A stretch of DNA of 64,000 nucleotides from an uncultured Chloroflexia bacterium (GTDB lineage: Bacteria; Chloroflexota; Limnocylindria; Limnocylindrales; CSP1-4), in contig CAWEZH010000002.1 in the NCBI GenBank assembly GCA_963813535.1, positions 1,120,573-1,184,572 on the forward strand. Reading direction: 5' to 3'. The notes under the pieces were generated by a model that was not told where the DNA came from, searched no databases, and saw only the letters and a list, made by a program, of their open reading frames with translations. Below, in pieces: positions 51,753-64,000 of this stretch (within the stretch, counting starts at the first letter, position 1; the number at the start of each line of letters is the position of its first letter). Position numbers and translations under genes: made by a program.

Positions 51753-52805
51753 TTAGGCCTCTTCGCGCTCCACGACCCCGCGGGAGGCGGGCGCGAGCCG
51801 GGGCTGCGGAACGTCGGACACATTCGGCACGAACGACGCGGCAAGCGACGTGGCGGCGGCCGTCTCCTGGTCCTCGGCCGACAGGATGCCCAGCCGGCCG
51901 AGCGTCGCCATCTCGTCGCGGATGTACGTCTTGAGCATCTCCGGGCCGTCGGTGTTGATGGTGAACCGGATGCCGTTGCGCCGGAACGTATCGAAGATCC
52001 AGCGGAACTCGTCCCAGCCGGACACGACCTTCGTGTTGAGATTGGACGTCGGGCAGATCTCCAGCACGATGCCGCGCTCGCGGATCATCTCCATCGCGCG
52101 CGGATCGTAGGCGGCCTTCACGCCATGGCCGATACGATCGGGTTCCAGCAGTTCGACGACGCGGGCGATCTCGTCGACCGGGCCGGCTTCACCGGTGTGG
52201 ACCGTGATCCCGAGGCCGAACTGGCGGGCTCGGCGGAACAACCGGCGATAGTCGGCGACGCGGAAGGTCGACGCCTCCGGCCCGGCGATATCGATCCCGA
52301 CCACGCCACGGTCCCGCCAGCTGATGGCCTTCTCCGCGATGATCTCATTCAGCTCGAACGGGAATGCGCGATCGAGGCAGAAGATGAGCCCGGGTTTGAC
52401 CGGGTACTCGAGCGTGGCCTTGTCCATGCCCCGGAGCGCCGCCGCGATGATGTGGTCGAGATCCTGCTCGCCACCGCGGTTCCTCTTCATCGGGTTGAAG
52501 CGGAGCTCCATCGTCGTGATGTTGTTCTTGCGGTAGGCACCGCCGACCACTTCGTACACGGCTCGTTCGACCGCGATCGGCGAGCTCTGGATGAGCTCGG
52601 TCCAGTGGAAGAGCTGCAGGTAGCCGTCGAAGCTCTGGGAGCGCTTCGAGACCGTGATCATGTCCCGGAACTCCCAGTAGTCCTTGGTCGGCAACTTGAT
52701 GCCCTGGGCGTGTGCGATGCCCCACATGATCGCCGGGGTCACGGCGCCGCCGAGATGGCAGTGCAGCTCTGCGAGCGGGACCTTGCGAGCGAGCTGTCGG
52801 ACCAT
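51753..52805 (-). CDS. adenosine/adenine deaminase family metallo-dependent hydrolase
   Basis: Motifs present are [10 protein letters not shown] (HxH metal ligands), VHTGEAG (catalytic Glu/His) and FTINTDGPE (terminal Asp). Confidence 0.8.
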
Positions 52806-53623: not shown

Positions 53624-54649
53624 TCAGCCGGCGAGTGGGACGACGCGCCCTTCGTCATCGATGGTGGCCCGGCGGCGACGCTTGAGCTCTGCGTCGGGGA
53701 CCTGGTCCCGCGCGTGATAGCTGGAGCGGACGAGCGGGGCCGACTCGACGTGCTTGAAGCCGAGCGCCAGCGCCGCTGCCTTCATCTCGGCGAACTCGTC
53801 GGGATGGTAGTAGCGCTCCAGTGGAAGGTGCTGCATCGACGGTCGCAGGTACTGGCCGACGGTCAGGATGTCGACGTCGTTCTCGCGTAGCGCCTCGAAT
53901 GCCTCCTGGAGCTCGTCGCGCGTCTCACCGAGGCCGACCATGAGGCTCGACTTGGTGTGCACCGGGTAACCGATCTCGCGCGCCATCTCCTTGGCCCGCC
54001 GAAGCACGTAGAGGCTGCGGTCCCAGCGCGCCCGCTTGCGCACCGGCTTCTGGAGTCGGCGGACCGTCTCGAGATTGTGGTTGAGGATGTCCGGCCGCGC
54101 ATCCATGACCGTCCGCAGCCGATCGTCGGAGCCGTCGAAATCCGGGATGAGGACCTCGATGCCCATGCCGGGACTTCGTTCGCGCATGCAGCCGATGGTC
54201 TCGGCGAAGATCCGCGACCCGCCGTCGGGCAGGTCATCTCGAGCGACACTGGTCACGACGACGTGTTCGAGACGCATCGCGGCCACGGCCTCGGCGACCC
54301 GGCGCGGCTCGTCGTCGTCGAACCAGGTGGGGCGACCCGTCTTGACGGCGCAGAACCCGCAGGCACGGGTGCAGGTATCGCCGAGGATCATGATCGTGGC
54401 GGTGCGCTGATCCCAGCATTCCCCGATGTTCGGGCAGTGCGCCTCCTCGCAGACGGTGTTGAGCTGGAGGCCGCGGAGCAGGCGCTTCAGGTCCTGGAAG
54501 TTGTCGCCCGACGGCACCCGAGCGCGGATCCAATCCGGATGGCGGCGAAGCGGCGTGACCGATCCACCCATCGCGATCGAATCCGGGGCGGGCGCCGGAT
54601 GGCGCCCACCGCTGGACGGGGGCTCGAACATCGGAAGCTCACGGGCCAT
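53624..54649 (-). CDS. lipA: lipoyl synthase
   Basis: The N-terminal cluster motif CEEAHCPNIGEC and the radical-SAM motif CTRACGFCAV are present, with downstream conserved blocks (VVVTSVARDDL, NHNLETV, KSSLMVGLGET). The 481-aa track ORF is over-extended at the N-terminus. Confidence 0.9.
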   Translation of the reverse strand: MARELPMFEPPSSGGRHPAPAPDSIAMGGSVTPLRRHPDWIRARVPSGDNFQDLKRLLRGLQLNTVCEEAHCPNIGECWDQRTATIMILGDTCTRACGFCAVKTGRPTWFDDDEPRRVAEAVAAMRLEHVVVTSVARDDLPDGGSRIFAETIGCMRERSPGMGIEVLIPDFDGSDDRLRTVMDARPDILNHNLETVRRLQKPVRKRARWDRSLYVLRRAKEMAREIGYPVHTKSSLMVGLGETRDELQEAFEALRENDVDILTVGQYLRPSMQHLPLERYYHPDEFAEMKAAALALGFKHVESAPLVRSSYHARDQVPDAELKRRRRATIDDEGRVVPLAG

Positions 54650-54684
54650 GGCGCGAGTGTAGTCCCGTTCGGATCCGTCCACGG

Positions 54685-55131
54685 TCAGGTGGCCGGAGGA
54701 CCGGATGGCGCATGGAACTGGCTCGAGATCGCCGCGCCGACGCGATCGCCGTCCAGATCGAGGAGGACCAGGTACCAGTCGGCTGCGGCCTCGAACGCCG
54801 GCCGGCGCGCCTCGTCGATATCGTCGACCGGCATGCTCAGCTTCAGCCCATCGCGGCTCGGGTAGCTCCCCATGAACTCGCAATCCCCGCCGGGCGTCCA
54901 GCCGACACGCTCGGCGGCCCCGTCCGGGAGTCGTGGCGGCTGGGCGGGGCAGAGGTAGACCGCCGAGATATCGGCGAACCAGCCGGGAGCATCGAGCTCG
55001 ACCGTCGCCGGGGTCGTCCAGATATGCAGGTTCACCGGCGTGCCGAAGTCGAGTGACCCCGGCCCGCACCCGCCGGCGACGAGGGCGATCCCGAGCGCTG
55101 CGGCGACGAGCGGTCTGCGCTCAGCGCCCAT
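54685..55131 (-). CDS. lipoprotein (148 aa)
   Basis: The N-terminus MGAERRPLVAAALGIALVAGGCG contains an LVAGGC lipobox. It overlaps the upstream gene end by about 10 nt. Confidence 0.5.
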   Translation of the reverse strand: MGAERRPLVAAALGIALVAGGCGPGSLDFGTPVNLHIWTTPATVELDAPGWFADISAVYLCPAQPPRLPDGAAERVGWTPGGDCEFMGSYPSRDGLKLSMPVDDIDEARRPAFEAAADWYLVLLDLDGDRVGAAISSQFHAPSGPPAT

Positions 55132-56092
55132 CGAACGTCGCCCGGAGACCGCTCGCCAGATCCCGCGGCGCGTACCCGAGCTCGGTGGCGGCCTTGGCCG
55201 ACGAGCCCCAGAACGTGACGCCGATCGCGGATCGGGCCACCTCGCCGAGGTCGTCGGGGAGGCCCATCGAGCGTGCCAGCGCCGCAGGGGCGCGCGCGCC
55301 GAGTCGGACCATCCCGGTCGGGATCTCGAGGCGCGGCAGCGTCCGGCCGCCGAGCCGGGCGGCCATCTGCATCGCGTCGCGCAGCTTCATGTTCTGCCCG
55401 CCGAGGAAGTACGGCTCGCCGATGCGGCCGCGGTCCAGCGCCGCGACGATCCCGGCCGCGACGTCGTCCACGAATACGGGCGAGATGCCCAGGTCCGCCA
55501 GGACCAGGTACCGCAACGTTCCGTCGTAGGCGCCCTTGAGCTGTTGCCCGATGGCCGAATGGTCGTTCGGGCCGTACGTCGTACCGGGCATGGCGATCAC
55601 GATCCGGGCACCCCCGCCGATGCGTTCCTGGACGGCGCGGTGGGCCAGGTACTTCGTCTCGTCGTAGTAGCTGAGGAACCCCTCCGACAGGTCCCGTCGG
55701 TAGCGCTCGTCGACGATGCGCCCGTGCGTGTTGCCGGCCACGTTGATCGTCGAGATCGCCACCAGACGGTCGAGCCCGGCGGTCGCGAACGCGTCGAGGA
55801 CGCGGTGCGTCCCGCCGACGTTCGCGTCGTGCATCGCGGGGCGCTCGCTCGCCGGGATCCCGACCCGGTAGATACCGGCGAGGTGGATGGCGGCATCGGT
55901 GCCACGCATCGCGTCGACGATCGCCGCCGTCCGCGACAGGTCGCCCTCTCGCACATCGACGCCCATCGCGGCGAGCGGCTCAGCGCGCTCGAGGTCCCGG
56001 ACGACCGCCGTGACCCGGTCGCCACGGGCCATCAAGCGCCGGACGACGGCCTCACCGATGAACCCCGATCCGCCAGTGACGAATACACGCAT
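55121..56092 (-). CDS. NAD-dependent epimerase/dehydratase family (extended SDR) protein
   Basis: The Rossmann motif MRVFVTGGSGFIGEAVVRRL is present, with a YxxxK-type catalytic region (YDETKYLAHR). Confidence 0.8.
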   Translation of the reverse strand: MRVFVTGGSGFIGEAVVRRLMARGDRVTAVVRDLERAEPLAAMGVDVREGDLSRTAAIVDAMRGTDAAIHLAGIYRVGIPASERPAMHDANVGGTHRVLDAFATAGLDRLVAISTINVAGNTHGRIVDERYRRDLSEGFLSYYDETKYLAHRAVQERIGGGARIVIAMPGTTYGPNDHSAIGQQLKGAYDGTLRYLVLADLGISPVFVDDVAAGIVAALDRGRIGEPYFLGGQNMKLRDAMQMAARLGGRTLPRLEIPTGMVRLGARAPAALARSMGLPDDLGEVARSAIGVTFWGSSAKAATELGYAPRDLASGLRATFDGR

Positions 56093-56132
56093 CAGGCGAG
56101 GGCCCCCGAGAGCGGGACGACGCCCTCAGCGT

Positions 56133-57647
56133 TCAGTAGATCGGCGTGTCCGGCCCGACCGCCTCGAGCCACGCCTTGATATCGCGAAGCAGCGCGGCAC
56201 CGCCCGCGCCGTCATTCGCCCGGTGGTCGACGCCGAGGACCATGTTCATGATCGGGCGGATGGCGATGACGTCGCCGTCGGGGGTCGACTGCACGACCGG
56301 ACGCTTGGTGATCGCCTCCATGGTCACGATCCCGACCTCGGGGACATTGAGGATCGGCATGACCAGGTTCGTGCCGAGGTAGCCGGTGTTGTCGACGGTG
56401 AACGTGCCACCTCCGAAGTCGTCGACTCGGAACTTGTTGGCGCGTGCCCGGTTGGCGACGTCGGTGATGGCGACGTTCAGGCCATGGATCGAGAGCGTGT
56501 CCGCGTCGCGGATGACGGGCACCAGCAGGCCGTCGTCCACGGCCACGGCCACGCCGATATTGATCCTGCGCTTGGCGAGCAGGCCCTCCTCGGTCCAATT
56601 GGCGTTGAACGTCGGATTGCGCTTCAGCGCTTCCGCCGCGGCCTTCACGACGAACGGCACGTAGCTGAGCGAGATGCCTTCCTTCGCCTGATACGCCTTC
56701 TTGGCGGCCTCACGGGCAGCCATGAGACGCGTCACGTCGACCTCCATCTGGACGTAGGCGTGGGGCGCCTGGAGGGCGCGCGTCATCTGGGCCGCGATGC
56801 CCTTGCGCATCTGGGTCATCGGCAGGAGGACTTCGTCGGCGCCTTCCGGGAAGTCGACGGTCGCGGCCGTCGGCATCGCGGATCGCTGGGCCGTGGCAGG
56901 CGCCGGGGCAGCTGCCGGTTGCGCCGCGCTCGGGCCGGCCTGGGCGGGCGCCGTAGCGGGCTTCGCCGCCGGGGCGGGTGCGGCGCCACCCGTCCGGATC
57001 GTCTCGACCACGGCGAGCACGTCGTCCCGGGTGATGCGCCCGCCTCCGCCAGTGCCGACGATCTGCTCGGCACTCAAGCCGTGCTCGCGGAGCAGCCGCC
57101 GAACAGCGGGCGTCATGCGCGCATCGGCATCGCCCTGGGCCGTCGGTGGGGCGGCCGTGGCGGCGGCAGCCGGGCGTTCGGCCGCGGGGGCGGATGCGCT
57201 CGGCGCCATGCCGGAGGGCGCCGACGCGGCCGCGGTTGCCCCGGCGGACGAGCCGTTCGCGGATTCGTCCGAACCGGCTGGTCCCTTCGTGTCGACCGGG
57301 GCCGGATCGTCGGCGGCGGGCTTCGCAGTGTCCTTTGCAGCATCCGGCTCGACCGGTGCGGCCTTGGCCTCGGCAGGCTGTGCGCCGTCGGCCGATGCGC
57401 CGTCGTCGGCCGTCTCGATGACCGCGATCTCCGCGTTGTTCGGGACCGTGGCGCCTTCCTCGGCCAGGATCTCCTTGAGGACGCCCTCGAACGGCGACGG
57501 GACCTCGGCGTTGACCTTGTCGGTGATGACCTCGAGCAGGGGCTCGTACTTGTCGACATGGTCGCCGGGCTGCTTGAGCCACTTGCCGATCGTCCCCTCG
57601 GCGACGCTCTCGCCGAGTTGGGGCATCGTCACCTTCGCCACGTTCAC
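56133..57647 (-). CDS. dihydrolipoamide acyltransferase (E2 component of a 2-oxoacid dehydrogenase complex)
   Basis: The lipoyl domain (VTMPQLGESVAEGTIGKWL...EVITDKVNAEV) is followed by an Ala/Pro linker and the E3-binding domain (TPAVRRLLREHGLS...GTGGGGRITRDDV). The catalytic domain ends ...DHRANDGAGGAALLRDIKAWLE. The GTG start has an AAGGAG Shine-Dalgarno sequence. Confidence 0.9.
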   Translation of the reverse strand: MNVAKVTMPQLGESVAEGTIGKWLKQPGDHVDKYEPLLEVITDKVNAEVPSPFEGVLKEILAEEGATVPNNAEIAVIETADDGASADGAQPAEAKAAPVEPDAAKDTAKPAADDPAPVDTKGPAGSDESANGSSAGATAAASAPSGMAPSASAPAAERPAAAATAAPPTAQGDADARMTPAVRRLLREHGLSAEQIVGTGGGGRITRDDVLAVVETIRTGGAAPAPAAKPATAPAQAGPSAAQPAAAPAPATAQRSAMPTAATVDFPEGADEVLLPMTQMRKGIAAQMTRALQAPHAYVQMEVDVTRLMAAREAAKKAYQAKEGISLSYVPFVVKAAAEALKRNPTFNANWTEEGLLAKRRINIGVAVAVDDGLLVPVIRDADTLSIHGLNVAITDVANRARANKFRVDDFGGGTFTVDNTGYLGTNLVMPILNVPEVGIVTMEAITKRPVVQSTPDGDVIAIRPIMNMVLGVDHRANDGAGGAALLRDIKAWLEAVGPDTPIY

Positions 57648-57768
57648 TGCTCCTTCGCAGGGGATCGTCGTCTCGCGACCGGTCTAGTGTCGCCCATCCG
57701 CGGGATGCCGGTCGAGTGGGCAGGCGGCCGGTCCGACGACCAGCGGCGCCTGTAGGGTATCGGTCGAG

Positions 57769-60564
57769 ATGGACCCGGCCGCCCGCGTCCTGCGCGTCCT
57801 GTCGATACGGCCCGGCGAGGGACGGGTTGTCGGCGGTGTGGCGATGCTGTTCGCGGTGCTCGAAGCGGCACGCGGATTCGGAGAGGTCGGCGCTGACTCC
57901 CTGGTGCTGGGCCAATACGGCCCGGACGCGCTTCCGACCACCCTGCCGTACCTCTTCATCGGCCTCGGCGTCACGAGCTTCCTGGTATCGCTCGGGTATG
58001 CGGCGGCCCTGGGCCGCCTGCCACGGATCCCGCTGTTCATCGGCATCGTCACCGGCATCGCGTTGCTCCTCGTGGCGGAACGTGTCGGACTGGCGGCCGG
58101 CAGGACCGAACTCGTGCCCGTGATCTGGCTCACGGTCTTCGCATCGAGCGCGATCAACCTCACCATCGCCTGGACGGTGAGCGGAGCGTCCTTCGACGCG
58201 AGGCAGGCAAAGCGACTGTTCCCGCTCCTCACGAGCGCAGCGATCGTCGGGAGTTTCTCGGGAACCCTGGCGGCAGGGCCGATCGCGCATGCCTCCAGCG
58301 TCGAGACCCTTGTGGTCGTCCAGTCCGCGTTCCTCGGACTTGCCGCCGTGCTGCTCGCGCGACTACCCCGTCCCCGGACGCGGCGGTCGGCGGCCGGACG
58401 CGGAGCGTCGGTCGTGGCGGACCTGCGGGTCGGCTTCGACACGGTGGCCCGCTCGCCGTTGATGCGGCTCGTGGCGGTGGCCTACGTGCTGCTCGCCATC
58501 CTCCTCTTCTCGGTCTCGTTCCCGTTCCTCATCGCGGCGTCGCGCGAGTTCCCGGACAAGGTCGAACTGGCCACCGCTCTCGGGTTGCTGTCGACCGCGG
58601 TCACGGCCACGTCATTCGTCCTGTCGCTCGTCGTCGCGAACCGGCTCTATGCGCGTTTCGGGATCTCGGCCGGAGCACTCCTTCAGCCGATCGTGTACGT
58701 GCTGGGGTTCGCGACATGGCTCCTGCAGTTCTCGTTCGCCACCGCGGCTGCGTTCCGATTCGGCCAGCAGGTCACCCAGCGTGGTATCTCCAACGCAGCC
58801 TGGAGCGCGTTCTACAACGTCGTCCCGGCCGATAGACGCGCCCAGGTGCTCGGCTTCATCGACGGCGTCCCCGGGCAGGTCGGGACCGTTCTCTCCGGCA
58901 TCCTGCTGCTCCTCACCGCCGGTCTTAGCGGGTTGGAGCCGGTCTTCTGGCTCGGGATCGGGACCGCCGTCATCGCGACGCTCGTGGTCATCCAGATACG
59001 ACGGCGGTATGCGGAAAGCCTTCTGACCGCCCTGCGATCGGGGCTCGCCGAGCAGGTCCTCGAAGGTGGACCCGGCCTGCCCGCGGCACTCGACCGCCCC
59101 GACGTCCGTGGTGTGCTGCTCACTGCGCTGAGCGACGCCGACCCCCACACCCGGAGGCTTGGCGTGGCGCTCCTCGGTCGCGCGGATGTGCTTCGACCAG
59201 ACGAGCGGGACCTCGTGGCTGCTCTCGGTGACGACCCGTCACCGCGCGTCCGCGCGGAGGTTGCTGCAGCGCTGGCGGGCGATCCCGCCGACACTCGTCC
59301 CGGCGTCCTCATCGCCGCCTTGCTCGACGCGGAGTCGGACGAGTCGCGGATGGCCGGTCTCGATGCCGCGGCACGCGTCCCCGACCGTGTGTCATCCGAC
59401 GACCTGCGCGGTTTCCTTGACGATCCGTCGCCGGGTGTCCGCGCTGCAGCCATTCGGGCTCTGGCCGTCCGACCCGATGAGGCTACGGTCGTTCCGACGG
59501 CGATGCTCGTCGACGCGCTCGATGACGACGCCTACCTCGTCCGTTCGGCCGCCTCGTCGGCGCTCGCGGCGCGGGCCGACGGACGAGCGGCGGTGATCCA
59601 TGCGCTCGACGTGGGATCTGAGCGAGCGCAGGACGCGGCGCTCCTTGCGCTCACCGGCCGTGCCGGCGATGTCCAGGCGGATCTCCTTTCGTGGGCCAGC
59701 GTCCAGATCGAGCGGGCGGAAGCTCTCCATCGAGCGCATGGATCGGTGGCGGCGCTCCCCGAGCGGACCCCCGTCGGCGCCTTCCTCGAAGCCGTGGTCG
59801 CCCAACGAGCTCGACGGGCCGAGGACCGGGCGATCGCCGTCGTCGTCGCCGTCGGCGCGCCGGCAGCCGGGGGACTCATGCGCCGATCCCTGCGCTCGAG
59901 CGATCAGGATGCCCGGGCACAGGCCATCGAGGCCCTTGATTCCCTGGGTGACCGGCGGCTCGGTCGCGCCCTCTCGGCCTGTCTCGAAGCGGCGGCCGAA
60001 CCGTCACGGATCGACCCCATCGAAACACTCGACCGGCTGGCGTACGACGACGATCGCTGGATCGCCATGCTCGGTCGGGCGGTCCGTGCCACGCTGACGA
60101 CCCGTAGCGAGGACGATACGGCCATGACCCAGGGCGACGGCGCGTCGGGCGAGATCGAGACCATGCTGCTCCTTCGTCGAGTGCCGTTGTTCGCGGGTCT
60201 CGAACCGGAGGACCTACAGCGGGTCGCGATGGTGGCGATGGAGCGCGACTACCCGTCCGGGTCGGCGCTCGTGCGCGAGGGGGAGATCGGGGACGAACTG
60301 GTCGTGATCGTCGAGGGGGCCGTGCGCGTCGTCCAGGCGACGCCCGATGGCGAGGAGCGATTCATCCGGAGCTACGGTGCCGGCGAACATGTCGGCGAAC
60401 TTGCCGTCCTGCGCGACCGGCCGCGGGTCGCCACGGTCATCGCCGACGGCGACGTCCGGGGCCTCGTGCTCGGTGGGGACGCCCTGCGCGCGATCCTGCG
60501 TGAACGGCCCGAGGCGGCGATGGCGATGCTTGCCACCCTCGCGGAGCGCATCTCGACCCAGTAG
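57769..60564 (+). CDS. multidomain membrane protein: 12-TM transporter-like domain (MFS/TLC-like) + HEAT/PBS-lyase-like repeats + C-terminal cyclic-nucleotide-binding domain
   Basis: The first ~430 aa are 12 hydrophobic helices. The middle has repeated DDPSPRVRAEVAAALAG / DDPSPGVRAAAIRALA / DDDAYLVRSAASSALAA HEAT-like units. The C-terminus has RRVPLFAGLEPEDLQRVA...GEIGDELVVIVEGAVRV...GAGEHVGELAVLRDRPRVATVIA, the cNMP-binding beta-roll with its phosphate-binding cassette. Confidence 0.7.
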   Translation: MDPAARVLRVLSIRPGEGRVVGGVAMLFAVLEAARGFGEVGADSLVLGQYGPDALPTTLPYLFIGLGVTSFLVSLGYAAALGRLPRIPLFIGIVTGIALLLVAERVGLAAGRTELVPVIWLTVFASSAINLTIAWTVSGASFDARQAKRLFPLLTSAAIVGSFSGTLAAGPIAHASSVETLVVVQSAFLGLAAVLLARLPRPRTRRSAAGRGASVVADLRVGFDTVARSPLMRLVAVAYVLLAILLFSVSFPFLIAASREFPDKVELATALGLLSTAVTATSFVLSLVVANRLYARFGISAGALLQPIVYVLGFATWLLQFSFATAAAFRFGQQVTQRGISNAAWSAFYNVVPADRRAQVLGFIDGVPGQVGTVLSGILLLLTAGLSGLEPVFWLGIGTAVIATLVVIQIRRRYAESLLTALRSGLAEQVLEGGPGLPAALDRPDVRGVLLTALSDADPHTRRLGVALLGRADVLRPDERDLVAALGDDPSPRVRAEVAAALAGDPADTRPGVLIAALLDAESDESRMAGLDAAARVPDRVSSDDLRGFLDDPSPGVRAAAIRALAVRPDEATVVPTAMLVDALDDDAYLVRSAASSALAARADGRAAVIHALDVGSERAQDAALLALTGRAGDVQADLLSWASVQIERAEALHRAHGSVAALPERTPVGAFLEAVVAQRARRAEDRAIAVVVAVGAPAAGGLMRRSLRSSDQDARAQAIEALDSLGDRRLGRALSACLEAAAEPSRIDPIETLDRLAYDDDRWIAMLGRAVRATLTTRSEDDTAMTQGDGASGEIETMLLLRRVPLFAGLEPEDLQRVAMVAMERDYPSGSALVREGEIGDELVVIVEGAVRVVQATPDGEERFIRSYGAGEHVGELAVLRDRPRVATVIADGDVRGLVLGGDALRAILRERPEAAMAMLATLAERISTQ

Positions 60565-60573
60565 AGTCGGCCC

Positions 60574-63210
60574 GTGGTCGACATCGAGGCCGGTCGGCGC
60601 GCACTACCGACCGGGACGGTCACCTTCCTGCGAACGGACGTCGAGGGGTCGATGGGACTCGCCCGCGCCCTCGGTCAGGGCTGGGATGCGGTCAATGCCA
60701 CGCACATGGGCATCCTCCGGAAAGCCGTCGATGAGCACGGCGGCATCAGCGTCCGCACCGAGGGCGACGCGATGTTCGCGGTCTTCCCGGAGGCGAGAGC
60801 CGCGGTCTCAGCCGCGATCGCCGCGCAGCGCGGTCTCGTGACCCACGAGTGGCCGGCCGGAGCGGACGTACGCGTCCGGATGGGTCTCCACTCGGGCGAG
60901 GCCTACCTGGCCGGTGACGACTACGGCGGTTTCGAGGTGAGCCGTGCCGCACGGATCGCCGGCGCCGGTCACGGTGGCCAGATCGTGCTCTCCGAGACGA
61001 CCCGTGCGCTGGTCGCAGACGCGCTGCCCGATGGCGTCGAGGTCCATGACCTCGGTCGTCATGCCCTCCGGGACGTCCCACGTCCGGAACACCTCTTCCA
61101 ACTGGACGCCCCGGGTCTGCCGACGCAGTTCCCGCCGCTGCGGTCCGGGTCGGCGACCGTCGGCGACCTGCCGTCCCGACTGACGAGCTTCATCGGACGC
61201 GACGCCGAACTCGACGAGCTGGCCGACCTGCTCACGGAACGGCGGCTCGTCACGCTCACGGGGCCGGGCGGCATCGGCAAGACCAGCCTGGCCGTCGAGA
61301 CGGCGCGCGCGGTGGCGGATCACTCCCCTGACGGGGCGTGGTTCGTGCCGCTGGCCGATGTCGAGGACCCTGCCGACGTCAGGTCGATCATCGCTCGCGC
61401 GATCGGCCTGCACGACGGTCCCGGCCGACCAGCCGCGGAGGGACTCGCACCGTATCTTGCCGATCGCTCCGTACTGCTCGTCATCGACAACTTCGAGCGG
61501 CTGCTGGACGCGGCAGGTGACGTCGCCGACATCCTCGAGGCGTCGCCCCGGTCGCGCATCCTCGTGACGAGCCGCGCCCCGCTGCGGATCGCCGGCGAAC
61601 AGGAGTATCCCGTGCCGAGTCTTGGCGGGGACTGCGCGCGGCTGTTCACGGAGCGCGCCCGGTCCGTGCGGCCGGGCTGGGAGCCCCCTGCCGACGATAC
61701 CGTCGTGGACGAGGTCTGCTCGCTCCTCGATCGACTGCCGTTGGGCGTAGAGCTCACCGCGGCGCGCGTCGCGCTCCTTCCGCTGACGGCGATCCGCGAT
61801 CGCCTCCGCGCACAACTGCCACTGCCCGGGTCAGGTCCACGCAATGTGCCCGATCGGCAGCGGACGCTGGCGGGGGCCATCGCCTGGAGCCACGATCTGC
61901 TCCCGACCGACCTGCAACGCGTCCTGCATGACCTCGCGGTCTTCGACGTCGGCTTCGAGTACGAGCAAGCAGCGCAGGTCGTCGAACCACCGGCCGACGG
62001 TGGCGACGTCCTCGACCACCTGGCGACGCTCGTCGACCAGAGCCTGATCAGGCGCGACGCGAGTGAGAACGGCATCCGGTTCGAGATGCTCGAGACCATC
62101 CGAGCCTTCGCGCTCGAGCGTCTCCGGGCGGAAGATCGCGAGACGGCAGTCCGGCGCCGGCACGCGCTCGCCTACCTCGCTCTGGCCGAAGCCGCTGCGC
62201 CGAACCTGCCCGGATCCGATCAGCCGCGGTGGCTCGACCGGCTGACCATCGACTATGCGAACCTGCGGTCCGCGATCCGCTGGAGCATCGACGCCGGAGA
62301 GGTCGAGCTGGCGCTCCGCTTCGTCGCCGCGATGTGGCGTTTCTGGCAACAGGATGGACGGCTCGTCGAAGGCACCGACCTTGCGGAGGAGGCCCTCGCC
62401 ATGCCCGGCGCGGATCAGGCGACGCCAGGTCGATTGGCCGCGCTCGGGGCCGCCGGCGGGATCGCCTACTGGCACGGACGTCGGGGCGACTCGACCCGGT
62501 ACTACAAGGAGCAGCTCACGCTCGCCCGGCAGCTGGGGGATGTCGCGGCGGAGGCCGACGCGACCTGGAATCTCGCGTTCGAGCCCTATGTCGCCGGCGA
62601 CTTCGACGGTGCAGCCCAGATGGTGCTCTCCGCCCGCGGCATGTTCGAACGGATCGGCGACGAGCGCGGCGTCGCGCGGGCGGACTGGTCGATGGTGACC
62701 GTAGCCTCGGGAGATCACCCGGGGGTGGGCGGACTGGAGACTCTTGAGTCGCTCAATGAACGGTTCGAACGGCTCGGCGATACCTGGTACGCGTTCCAGA
62801 ACTACATGAGCATCGCATGGGTCTACTACTCGGCAGACGACGTTGCGGGGGCCAGTCGCTGGTTCGTCCGTGCCCTGGTCGGCTCGCGTTCGCTCCGAGA
62901 CGTGACTGGAACCACCATCGCGATCCCGCTTGCGGCGTTGCTGGCGCTCGAGGCCGACCGCCCGGAGGACGCTGCGACACTCCTCGGATCCGCGGACCAC
63001 CTGAGCGAGCTGTACGGCGTGAAGGCGCCGCTGGGTCTGCGCGAGTTGCTTGGCGTGAGCGATCCGCAGGGTCGGGCGCTCGCCGCGCTCGGCCAGGAGC
63101 GATACCAGGAGGCTTTCGATCGGGGGCGCCAGATGACGCTCGATCAGACGGTCGAACGCATCGTCCGCATGCAGGACGAGGCCTGGGGACCTGGCGAGAC
63201 TGCTGGTTGA
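60574..63210 (+). CDS. class III adenylate/guanylate cyclase fused to a STAND-type NTPase (NB-ARC/AAA) and helical repeat (TPR-like) domain
   Basis: The cyclase core reads VTFLRTDVEGSMGLARALG...EGDAMFAVFPEA...VRMGLHSGEAYLAGDDYGGFEVSRAARIAGAGHGGQIVLSE. It is followed by the P-loop LTGPGGIGKTSLA, Walker B LLVIDNFERL, and a C-terminal helical repeat region. The start lies 10 nt after the previous gene. Confidence 0.8.
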   Translation: MVDIEAGRRALPTGTVTFLRTDVEGSMGLARALGQGWDAVNATHMGILRKAVDEHGGISVRTEGDAMFAVFPEARAAVSAAIAAQRGLVTHEWPAGADVRVRMGLHSGEAYLAGDDYGGFEVSRAARIAGAGHGGQIVLSETTRALVADALPDGVEVHDLGRHALRDVPRPEHLFQLDAPGLPTQFPPLRSGSATVGDLPSRLTSFIGRDAELDELADLLTERRLVTLTGPGGIGKTSLAVETARAVADHSPDGAWFVPLADVEDPADVRSIIARAIGLHDGPGRPAAEGLAPYLADRSVLLVIDNFERLLDAAGDVADILEASPRSRILVTSRAPLRIAGEQEYPVPSLGGDCARLFTERARSVRPGWEPPADDTVVDEVCSLLDRLPLGVELTAARVALLPLTAIRDRLRAQLPLPGSGPRNVPDRQRTLAGAIAWSHDLLPTDLQRVLHDLAVFDVGFEYEQAAQVVEPPADGGDVLDHLATLVDQSLIRRDASENGIRFEMLETIRAFALERLRAEDRETAVRRRHALAYLALAEAAAPNLPGSDQPRWLDRLTIDYANLRSAIRWSIDAGEVELALRFVAAMWRFWQQDGRLVEGTDLAEEALAMPGADQATPGRLAALGAAGGIAYWHGRRGDSTRYYKEQLTLARQLGDVAAEADATWNLAFEPYVAGDFDGAAQMVLSARGMFERIGDERGVARADWSMVTVASGDHPGVGGLETLESLNERFERLGDTWYAFQNYMSIAWVYYSADDVAGASRWFVRALVGSRSLRDVTGTTIAIPLAALLALEADRPEDAATLLGSADHLSELYGVKAPLGLRELLGVSDPQGRALAALGQERYQEAFDRGRQMTLDQTVERIVRMQDEAWGPGETAG

Positions 63211-63235
63211 CCGCGGGAATATCCTCGCCTCACTG

Positions 63236-63703
63236 ATGGATCTGCTGACGGGCAACCTCGGTCTTCTGGTCCCCCTCGCGGGGTTCTTGCTCCTGCTCCT
63301 CGCCGCTGCGATCACCATCCGCCTGAGTCGGGGGGAGAGCGAGGCCGTAGCGCGGTGGCGCTATCGAGAACGGCGTCATGACGTGCCGCGGCATCGGGAG
63401 CCGCGCCAGGAAGTGCCGGTCCCGGAGCAAGCACGCCCATATGCCGGTCCGCTGGCGGCGCGACGGATGGCACGCCTTCTCATAGGTACCGCGATCGTCC
63501 TGCCGATCCTTACCTTCTTTGCGTGGATCGCTCAGCCCGGTTTCACCGGGGGGCCGATGTTCTACGAGGCCCCGTGGTACGAGGCGGCGCTGCCGTGGGC
63601 GGCTGCCGCGGGTTACCTGTTCGGGCTCGGCTGGATGATCCGGATCTACCGGGCGGATCCCGAGCCGGATCGCGGGACCTGGCGCTATCGCTCCGAGGCC
63701 TGA
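63236..63703 (+). CDS. hypothetical membrane protein (155 aa, 3-4 TM)
   Basis: Hydrophobic helices (LLVPLAGFLLLLLAAAITI; LLIGTAIVLPILTFFAWIA; AAAGYLFGLGWMIRIY) are present and the ORF is intact. Confidence 0.5.
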   Translation: MDLLTGNLGLLVPLAGFLLLLLAAAITIRLSRGESEAVARWRYRERRHDVPRHREPRQEVPVPEQARPYAGPLAARRMARLLIGTAIVLPILTFFAWIAQPGFTGGPMFYEAPWYEAALPWAAAAGYLFGLGWMIRIYRADPEPDRGTWRYRSEA

Positions 63704-63804
63704 GGCTCCTCCGGGGCCTGTGCCACTGAACCTGCACGCCATTCGTGCCATATGTGCAAGAGGCGCACCGTCGGCCCGCTGAGTTCGCCGGCTCGGTTCT
63801 CGCG

Positions 63805-63870
63805 TGCATCGTCATGCAGCCGCACATGCGGTGGTGACCACGTCCATGCGCTCTGATGCATCGTCATGCA
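63805..63870. promoter_or_regulatory. two copies of the inverted repeat TGCAT-CGTC-ATGCA, 52 bp apart (plus partial GATGCA-type half sites to 63925); candidate operator sites
   Basis: Identical 14-mers lie at 63805..63818 and 63857..63870, downstream of the last gene, in otherwise non-coding sequence near the window end. Confidence 0.3.
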
Positions 63871-64000
63871 GTCGCACGCACCTGAGCCGGCGCGTGGATG
63901 CATCCCAAGGTGCGCCGGATGCACATACGGCCCGATCGCGGGCGTGGGGCCGGGAGCTGACGCGCGACGGGAGCTGAACATGAACGCGACGCCCTCGGTG

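Follow-up and report, generated by a model that had tools for sequence, protein, structure and literature searches.

Does a bacterial membrane protein that carries a domain for binding cyclic nucleotides (cNBD) draw on a messenger source encoded right beside it? The question is raised by two genes on the forward strand of a 64,000-nucleotide stretch of DNA from an uncultured Chloroflexia bacterium (GenBank assembly GCA_963813535.1, contig CAWEZH010000002.1, positions 1,120,573 to 1,184,572), which we call the window. Gene 1 (57769..60564, + strand, ATG start) encodes a 931-residue protein with an NTT/TLC-like transporter domain, a HEAT solenoid and a C-terminal cNBD [NTT-HEAT-cNBD; open reading frame (ORF) and translation, Pfam, AlphaFold2 (AF2) model]. 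Gene 2 (60574..63210, + strand, GTG start) encodes an 878-residue protein composed of a class III nucleotidyl cyclase, an NB-ARC-type STAND NTPase and a TPR region (Pfam, NCBIfam, AF2, Foldseek). Our favored answer, to which we assign a probability of about 0.6, is that the two genes form a co-transcribed cyclic-nucleotide module in which a STAND-gated source of cyclic AMP (cAMP) is coupled to a cAMP-regulated nucleotide-type transporter.

The gene pair

Genes 1 and 2 are both real genes, and their homologues number in the hundreds to thousands. When 1.84 billion representatives were scanned in full with HMMER for protein 1, 5,915 clusters (50% identity) reached E ≤ 1e-30, and the best 150 matches include more than 100 relatives of full length (clusters of ~930–1070 residues). 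Protein 1 has at least 639 homologues, some of them labelled 'Npt1/Npt2 family nucleotide transporter' or 'HEAT repeat protein/ATP/ADP translocase'. The homologue search with protein 2 returned 7734 matches to cyclase-STAND-TPR proteins, and protein 2 has a database copy of 100% identity (P0121).

The coordinates, strands and lengths of both ORFs agree with a first-pass annotation made from the sequence alone. That annotation had put the gap between them at 10 nucleotides (nt); the spacer from the gene 1 TAG stop to the gene 2 GTG start measures 9 nt (60565..60573, + strand; TAG-agtcggccc-GTG). A spacing of 9–10 nt is also found in three related loci (L001, L002, L003). The G+C content is ~70% across the gene-pair region, and a consensus scan of positions 57500–63900 found no terminator-like site between or around the two genes.

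Several MFD long-read metagenome-assembled genomes (MAGs; loci L003, L004, L006, L007 and L011) have gene 1 or gene 2 in pieces. One database sequence, P0015, has 727 residues and covers 65% of gene 1 at 99% identity; two others, P0038 and P0181, are pieces that come from L011. The splits most likely reflect assembly indel errors rather than pseudogenes.

Conservation of the pairing and natural fusions

On four contigs with gene 1 homologues 74–50% identical to that of the window, a cyclase-STAND gene lies 9–10 nt downstream in 4/4 cases; in two long-read assemblies among them the downstream gene is fragmented by frameshifts. Scanning a species-representative genome collection gave 80 loci, mostly from Limnocylindria-type Chloroflexota MAGs, and the pairing was tallied with tblastn and domain hidden Markov models built for the analysis over 83 non-redundant loci with a gene 1 homologue. 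A class III cyclase gene is present beside or near the gene 1 homologue in 74 of the 83, mostly across a gap of 9–10 nt; the two genes are thus syntenic in most related genomes, as a module would predict. The cyclase domain lies within 700 nt, by its start or its end, in 61 of these 74 loci; the other 13 were scored as 'farther', and in most of them the genes are still adjacent. Nine of the 83 loci have no cyclase gene, four of them with short flanks.

The pairing outlasts rearrangement. In a paralogous clade (L030, L035, L037, L038 and L054) the order is inverted, with the cyclase gene preceding the transporter gene, the surrounding genes are others, and the dehydrogenase E2 gene that neighbors the pair in the window is missing. 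One MAG, Co_metawrap_1992, has two transporter-cyclase pairs (L081 and L084). Given this and the inverted-order paralogous version, the module seems to duplicate as a unit.

The cyclase partner is also replaceable. Gene 1 homologues of 30–37% identity, from Anaerolineae, Acidimicrobiia and other Actinomycetota, adjoin cyclases of non-orthologous architecture: a zinc-ribbon(DZR)-cyclase-AAA_16(-TPR) protein (L046, L049, L055 and L079), a TPR-cyclase (L066 and L070) or a small cyclase (L073). Very distant members of the family served as seeds for a further, independent set of 80 loci from metagenomes. Among the 20 of these loci with both flanks of at least 2.5 kb, 10 have an adjacent or fused cyclase, and the seven metagenome partners that we checked include DZR-cyclase-AAA_16-TPR_MalT proteins, a gene-2-type cyclase-NB-ARC protein, a REC-cyclase and one further cyclase.

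Finally, both proteins occur as one chain. Five single ORFs of 2025–2158 residues (P0315, P0388, P0389, P0390 and P0304) have the domain order TLC/MFS-HEAT-cNMP_binding-Guanylate_cyc-AAA_16-TPR_MalT, with a linker of ~20 residues leading from the last helix of the cNBD to the cyclase. They are 47–62% identical to P0315, which served as the query. The exact P0388 sequence is present in two independent assemblies, and since these are unrelated we take the fusions to be real genes.

Conserved adjacency, replacement of the partner by analogous proteins and fusion together point to a functional, and probably physical, interaction; on this comparative evidence genes 1 and 2 almost certainly work together. 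The proposal of the first-pass annotation that the pair makes up one cyclic-nucleotide circuit thus gains three independent comparative lines of support (conserved adjacency, non-orthologous cyclase partners and natural fusions). In the literature that we searched we found no report of a linkage between cyclases and NTT-HEAT-cNBD proteins.

Some further features of the partner proteins were noted. In distant lineages the commonest partner has a DZR zinc ribbon in front of cyclase-AAA_16-TPR_MalT (L046, L049, L055, L079, L095 and L116). The natural fusions have no DZR zinc ribbon, their cNBD being joined directly to the cyclase; the ribbon may be a docking element that fusion makes unnecessary. 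At one locus (L067:2777-5899) an AAA_16-TPR-LuxR(GerE) protein without a cyclase domain adjoins the NTT-HEAT-cNBD homologue; this neighbor is an Rv0386-type STAND partner minus the cyclase.

Structure of protein 1

The first-pass annotation had described protein 1 as a 12-helix transporter-like domain followed by HEAT repeats and a C-terminal cNMP-binding domain, and this layout is borne out by Pfam, a 28-homologue profile, the AF2 model and Foldseek. The AF2 model, built from 30 homologues, has a mean predicted local distance difference test score (pLDDT) of 82 and a predicted template-modelling score (pTM) of 0.60. It consists of a membrane helical bundle (residues 18–424), a solenoid (437–781), a disordered linker and a β-barrel cNBD (813–930).

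The transporter domain (57820..59040, + strand; residues 18–424) was assigned by profile match, Foldseek and hydropathy. Hydropathy and the AF2 model agree on ~12 transmembrane helices, arranged 6+6 with a central loop. On their own, the N-terminal 430 residues give sub-threshold matches to TLC and MFS_1 (E about 0.005–0.008), with a Pfam TLC score for protein 1 alone of 15.7 bits vs. a cut-off of 21. The N-terminal domains of 9/28 homologues match Pfam TLC and those of 15/28 match MFS_1, and a profile of the 28 homologous N-terminal regions matches the sequences of solved plant and bacterial NTT1 ADP/ATP carriers (9j3j, E 4.4e-6; 9j3n, E 2.2e-4), aligning the family motif ARQAKRLFP to EAKKFYP of NTT1 (9j3j). 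Foldseek superimposes the bundle on AtNTT1 (9j3m_A) over 478 columns with a TM-score of 0.69 at ~12% identity. The domain is consistent with a 12-helix NTT/TLC (PF03219-type) transporter, as a remote relative. Judged by its family, the substrate should be a nucleotide-type molecule.

The transporter domain is followed by a HEAT/ARM-like helical solenoid (59077..60111, + strand; residues 437–781), with matches to Pfam HEAT_2 (E 7.8e-13) and HEAT (E 9.4e-8) and paired helices throughout the AF2 model. At 46% mean identity this is the least conserved part of the protein. The most conserved, at 72%, is the cNBD found C-terminally in the same chain (60205..60558, + strand; residues 813–930), which was assigned by PF00027 and Foldseek. 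Pfam cNMP_binding (PF00027) matches residues 826–912 with an E-value of 6.6e-21, and Foldseek aligns the domain with the cNBDs of CRP, GlxR and PKG at a TM-score of ~0.8. Structures of SLC9C1 are also among the fold matches of protein 1, some of the entries having cAMP bound. The phosphate-binding cassette GELAVLRDRPRVATV (nt 60394-60438, + strand; residues 876–890) contains Glu877 and Arg886, both invariant in 30 homologues, and judged by these residues the cNMP-binding site looks competent.

Structure of protein 2

Protein 2 had been described as a class III cyclase fused to an NB-ARC P-loop NTPase and helical repeats, and each of the three parts was recovered (Pfam, the match to Ma1120, Foldseek and phmmer). 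The AF2 model has a pLDDT of 84.5.

The cyclase catalytic domain (60607..61113, + strand; residues 12–180) is the most conserved part of the protein, at 75% mean identity. It was placed by alignment with Ma1120 and canonical cyclases and by Foldseek. The Pfam Guanylate_cyc match is borderline (E 1.3e-4; 22.1 vs. 21.9 bits), and the match to the solved structure of Ma1120 is clear (E 3.7e-16, ~30% identity; Foldseek TM-score ~0.9). Residue roles were taken from Ma1120, whose corresponding residues are K101, D157, A164 and R168 (PMC4215837), with canonical cyclases aligned as well. In these alignments the metal-binding Asp pair is D22 and D65, the substrate residues are R61 and D116, and the transition-state residues are S123, at the canonical Asn position, and R127.

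The columns were examined in 112 homologues. The metal-binding pair, whose absence would have spoken against a cyclase, is present (D22 in 110/112, D65 in 112/112). At the substrate positions R61 is Arg in 110/112 and Lys in 2/112, and D116 is invariant (112/112); the canonical Lys-Asp pair is thus an Arg61-Asp116 pair family-wide. Asp116 favors adenine. As for the transition-state residues, R127 is present in all 112, and the Asn that is found in 108/112 (Ser in 3, Gly in 1) is replaced here by S123. Taken as a whole, the family has the look of active, homodimeric cyclases whose substrate pair is Arg-Asp.

The serine codon, AGC at 60940-60942, is no read error, since the closest relative (L011) and six more loci carry Ser as well, and a sequencing error was rejected as its origin. 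The seven loci belong to different sub-lineages. The inverted-order clade has His at this position, and Ser, His or Gly recur there across several lineages.

The cyclase is followed by a STAND nucleotide-binding oligomerization module (61189..62133, + strand; residues 206–520), which includes helical and winged-helix parts and was assigned by motifs, Pfam and Foldseek. Its translation contains the hhGRExE motif as FIGRDAE (residues 206–212), Walker A as GPGGIGKT (residues 230–237, nt 61261-61284), Walker B as LLVIDNFE (residues 301–308, nt 61474-61497) and sensor-1 as TSR (residues 332–334), all on the + strand. These four motifs of the NB-ARC-type STAND set are invariant in 29 homologues. AAA_16, nSTAND1 and NB-ARC from Pfam match residues 205–335, NACHT is matched too, and PF25872 (HTH_77) is among the precomputed annotations of protein 2 homologues. 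By Pfam and NCBIfam the ATPase module fits NB-ARC/AfsR/FxSxx-type models rather than, strongly, those of MalT/AAA_16. Foldseek matches include the archaeal STAND-TPR protein 6mfv, Apaf-1, CED-4, Avs3 and the NB-ARC domains of plant NLRs.

The rest of the chain is a TPR superhelix (62134..63189, + strand; residues 521–872) of the sensor or protein-binding kind, the C-terminal repeat region expected of a STAND protein. It is all-helical in the AF2 model, and by phmmer the C-terminal ~350 residues match the TPR domains of LGN/Pins. Its mean identity is 56%. No GerE/LuxR helix-turn-helix (HTH) was found in the C-terminal 712 residues of protein 2 even at E ≤ 10; as the first-pass annotation had noted, the chain ends without one, in TPR helices.

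Proposed mechanism and alternatives

STAND proteins undergo ligand-induced nucleotide exchange and oligomerization, and the active sites of class III cyclases form only across a dimer interface. Oligomerization is therefore a natural on-switch for a cyclase placed at the N-terminus of a STAND protein. In the module that we propose, the product of gene 2 would be a soluble STAND switch that senses a signal through its TPR region. The signal would lead to nucleotide exchange and oligomerization of the NB-ARC module, the N-terminal cyclase domains would pair as active dimers, and these would make a cyclic nucleotide, most likely cAMP. The product of gene 1 would be an inner-membrane protein with its NTT/TLC-type domain linked through the HEAT solenoid to the cNBD; binding of the cyclic nucleotide by the cNBD would alter transport activity. 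We infer that cAMP is the product, that oligomerization activates the cyclase, that control runs from cyclase to transporter, and that protein 1 transports, as well as what it transports. The natural fusions suggest a single complex of both proteins, in which case the messenger may have a local action.

Several lines of evidence argue for this module. The operon-like spacing of 9–10 nt, the conserved linkage, its survival of rearrangement, the non-orthologous partners and the fusions all tie the two proteins together. Both sites look competent, and the cyclase and the cNBD are the most conserved segments of their proteins. The STAND motifs are invariant and the NB-ARC fold is like that of Apaf-1, CED-4 and NLRs. 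SLC9C1 is a solved precedent for a secondary transporter that carries a cNBD.

Other observations weigh against it. The NTT-like domain is a remote relative that scores below the Pfam TLC threshold, which leaves transport and substrate unproven. The identity of the product is uncertain because the Lys-to-Arg change at the substrate position is non-canonical. At the transition-state position the enzyme in the window has Ser123 in place of Asn; its activity may be reduced, and it may be a variant that is weak or serves regulation. Work by Yan et al. in 1997 is said to have found that the equivalent Asn-to-Ser change strongly lowers kcat in a mammalian cyclase. About half of the distant members with informative flanks have no neighboring cyclase, so that the pairing is frequent and not obligatory. 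The 83 genome loci are not independent observations, most of them coming from one class. The evidence on all family members is sequence- and model-based only.

A stronger form of the module can be envisaged, which we hold tentatively and at less than even odds. Here the two proteins would form one physical membrane complex across several phyla, in which the STAND protein docks on the HEAT arm, makes cAMP from the transporter's nucleotide pool, and the cAMP acts in cis on the cNBD. The substrate of such a complex could be cAMP itself, exported as it is synthesized, or ATP/ADP, with cAMP serving as a local gauge, and the ~2,100-residue fusions would be the single-chain form of the machine.

The main rival reverses the direction of control. 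Protein 1 would be a membrane 'transceptor' or sensor, and through HEAT-TPR contacts it would inform the STAND cyclase of substrate occupancy or of the energy state; cAMP would go to other targets, and the cNBD would provide only feedback. In favor of this reading, the HEAT and TPR regions, both solenoids of the protein-binding kind, evolve fastest within their proteins, the fusions place cyclase-STAND directly after the cNBD, and the NTT-like domain diverges from proven transporters. We nevertheless consider reversed control unlikely. No part of protein 1 is better conserved than the cNBD, whose ligand-binding Glu and Arg are retained, so an input of cyclic nucleotide to the membrane protein has clearly been selected for, and no other cNBD or cyclase gene was found within the 64-kb window.

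Somewhat more doubtful is the idea that the cyclase of this genome is dead or strongly weakened (N123S), leaving protein 2 to serve the transporter as its scaffold or regulatory partner with no messenger involved. It takes its force from S123, which occupies a position that is Asn in nearly all homologues and which, being shared with the closest relative, is not a misread base. Against this, every other catalytic residue is intact, apart from this site the domain is no less conserved than in relatives that bear Asn, substitutions by Ser, His or Gly recur at the site in several lineages, and Ma1120 is active with Ala at the equivalent position and is inactivated by an introduced Asn (PMC4215837).

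It is improbable, and already disfavored, that the adjacency is inherited gene order with no coupling, the cNBD serving other cyclases and the STAND protein having an unrelated role. The dominance of one bacterial class among the 83 loci, the sheer number of cyclase-STAND-TPR proteins (7734 matches) and the distant homologues whose informative flanks hold no cyclase would all fit such a history. Inherited order does not readily explain why adjacency outlasts both inversion of the gene order and loss of the surrounding cluster, why other phyla show it again with cyclases of non-orthologous architecture, or why the two proteins are fused in five diverged sequences.

Genomic context

The pair lies antisense inside a 2-oxoacid dehydrogenase/lipoate cluster, both in the window and in most Limnocylindria loci. 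The order of the cluster, on the − strand, is E3, E1α, E1β, [the pair, on the + strand], E2, an epimerase-family gene, lipoyl synthase, a 241-residue ORF and adenosine deaminase. In the window the E2 gene occupies 56133-57647, the NAD-dependent epimerase-family gene 55121-56092, the lipoyl synthase (LipA) gene 53624-55069 and the adenosine deaminase gene 51753-52805, all on the − strand, as is the 241-residue ORF between the last two; the E1β, E1α and E3 genes are found downstream of the pair on the − strand in relatives. The position of the pair between the E2 and E1 genes is kept in many genomes while the identity of gene 1 falls from 94% to ~45%, and such a fixed chromosomal position speaks for vertical inheritance and not for the behavior of a defense island.

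The position thereby bears on a Pycsar-like anti-phage system, in which infection would trigger a cyclic nucleotide and a cNMP-binding membrane effector would damage the membrane: the layout is superficially the same (a cyclase gene adjoining a cNBD-bearing membrane protein), the cNBD matches the cNMP-binding part of the PADLOC PycTIR/Effector models (E 3e-9) and STAND NTPases include the Avs defense proteins, with Avs3 among our fold matches, but gene 2 matches no PycC or Avs model in PADLOC-DB (its sole match is a weak one to mad8, E 4.5e-4), a 12-helix NTT-type transporter with ~350 residues of HEAT repeats is unlike Pycsar effectors, and the pair sits at this fixed place rather than in the variable context of a defense island. 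A Pycsar or Avs role is thus highly improbable, and we rejected it on the PADLOC-DB result and the fixed core-genome position.

The dehydrogenase/lipoate context is absent from the inverted-order paralogues and from distant homologues. We treat it as a lineage-specific placement outside the module; a link of cAMP signaling to central carbon metabolism is possible.

The E2 gene (− strand) and gene 1 diverge from an intergenic region (57648..57768) that was delimited from the sequence and an alignment of 13 orthologous regions. A block of ~35 nt, tAGTGTCGcCCATCCGggcGATcgcGGTCGAGTG, at 57687-57720 is conserved in the 13 orthologous E2/gene 1 intergenic regions. A TAGGGTAT box at 57754-57761, 8–10 nt before the gene 1 ATG, could be the −10 element of a near-leaderless transcript. 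A consensus promoter scan of 57500-63900 found none, and no CRP-like palindrome is evident by eye in the E2/gene 1 intergenic region.

Two further ORFs flank the pair. A 622-residue ORF upstream of gene 1 (55887-57755, + strand) was rejected as a wrong-frame artefact, because it is Arg-rich (Arg/Gly-rich overall), as is typical of high-GC artefacts, and overlaps the E2 gene on the opposite strand. Downstream, a 155-residue ORF (63236-63703, + strand) starts 25 nt past the gene 2 stop and has at least two hydrophobic segments; it has no Pfam match. At L001 its position is taken by a different gene, Tricorn/PD40-like and on the − strand.

Significance

Each protein is a new member of an architecture that is known and annotated and has been experimentally uncharacterized; the pairing and the fusions are, as far as we could find, undescribed. 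The NTT-HEAT(-cNBD) proteins make up a very large bacterial family, found also in oomycetes and first described in 2017. A specific class of STAND-regulated class III cyclases recurs as the genetic, and sometimes fusion, partner of the NTT-HEAT-cNBD proteins, and from the pairing comes a concrete, testable hypothesis: that cyclic nucleotides control a nucleotide-type transporter. For the many orphan cyclase-ATPase-TPR proteins that Chloroflexota and Actinomycetota encode, which are related to the Rv0386 group of Mycobacterium tuberculosis, the pairing points to a first output. Structural studies could start from the natural fusions, which come ready-made as targets. If the proposed module is correct, it would be a bacterial secondary transporter gated by a dedicated, co-encoded messenger source.

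Comparison with known systems

The first-pass annotation knew of no characterized example of the architecture of protein 1. None has come to light, and the architecture itself is not new: NTT-HEAT-cNBD fusions were described by Major, Embley & Williams (2017, Genome Biol Evol; PMC5381601) as monophyletic, widespread in free-living bacteria and uncharacterized. They have the same domain order as protein 1, with NTT/TLC, HEAT (PF13646/PF02985) and a C-terminal PF00027; the NTT domain of protein 1 is divergent by comparison, falling below the Pfam TLC threshold. The 2017 study was purely phylogenetic, with two sequences from Chloroflexi, and reported no function, substrate or genetic link to a cyclase; its authors raised the speculation that transport could be tuned by cAMP that an adenylate cyclase makes (PMC5381601).

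Canonical NTT/TLC proteins (AtNTT1, chlamydial Npt1/Npt2; 9j3j, 9j3m, 9j3n) share with protein 1 the fold of the whole transporter domain and the region of the aligned motif. Unlike protein 1 they have no HEAT or cNBD extension. They exchange ATP/ADP or NTPs in organelles and intracellular parasites, whereas the hosts of protein 1 are free-living soil and freshwater Chloroflexota.

For protein 2, the closest solved relative of the cyclase domain is Ma1120 of Mycobacterium avium (PDB 4wp3 and others). Like protein 2 it has no transition-state Asn (Ala164), and yet it is active (PMC4215837). The catalytic domain stands alone in Ma1120 and has the canonical Lys-Asp pair; in protein 2 the pair is Arg-Asp, Ser occupies the Asn site, and a STAND-TPR module is fused to the domain. 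The label 'Rv0386-like' given by the first-pass annotation holds for the domain logic of cyclase and ATPase and fails at the end of the chain and in the type of ATPase. In M. tuberculosis, Rv0386, Rv1358 and Rv2488c consist of a class IIIc cyclase, an ATPase, TPR and a LuxR HTH (2024 preprint). In these and in protein 2 alike, a class III cyclase stands at the N-terminus, with a P-loop STAND-type ATPase and helical repeats after it, and both depart from the canonical substrate-specifying residues, the mycobacterial cyclase having Gln-Asn (2024 preprint) and protein 2 Arg-Asp. In a comparison made by description only, protein 2 differs in having no LuxR/GerE HTH, in an ATPase that is NB-ARC/AfsR-like and not of the AAA_16/MalT type, and in the pairing of its gene with a cNBD transporter.

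Pycsar systems share the two-gene logic of a cyclase and a cNBD-bearing membrane or effector protein, with a PADLOC match at the level of the domain; the pair described here differs in that gene 2 has no PycC match, and in its conserved core-genome position, its transporter-type effector and its STAND-regulated cyclase. The sperm Na+/H+ exchanger SLC9C1 and the cNMP-gated channels SthK and HCN are, like protein 1, membrane transport proteins with a C-terminal cNBD. Their transporter folds are unrelated to that of protein 1, and it is the gene pair, unlike these proteins, that joins the cNBD to its transporter domain through a HEAT linker and couples it genetically to a cyclase.

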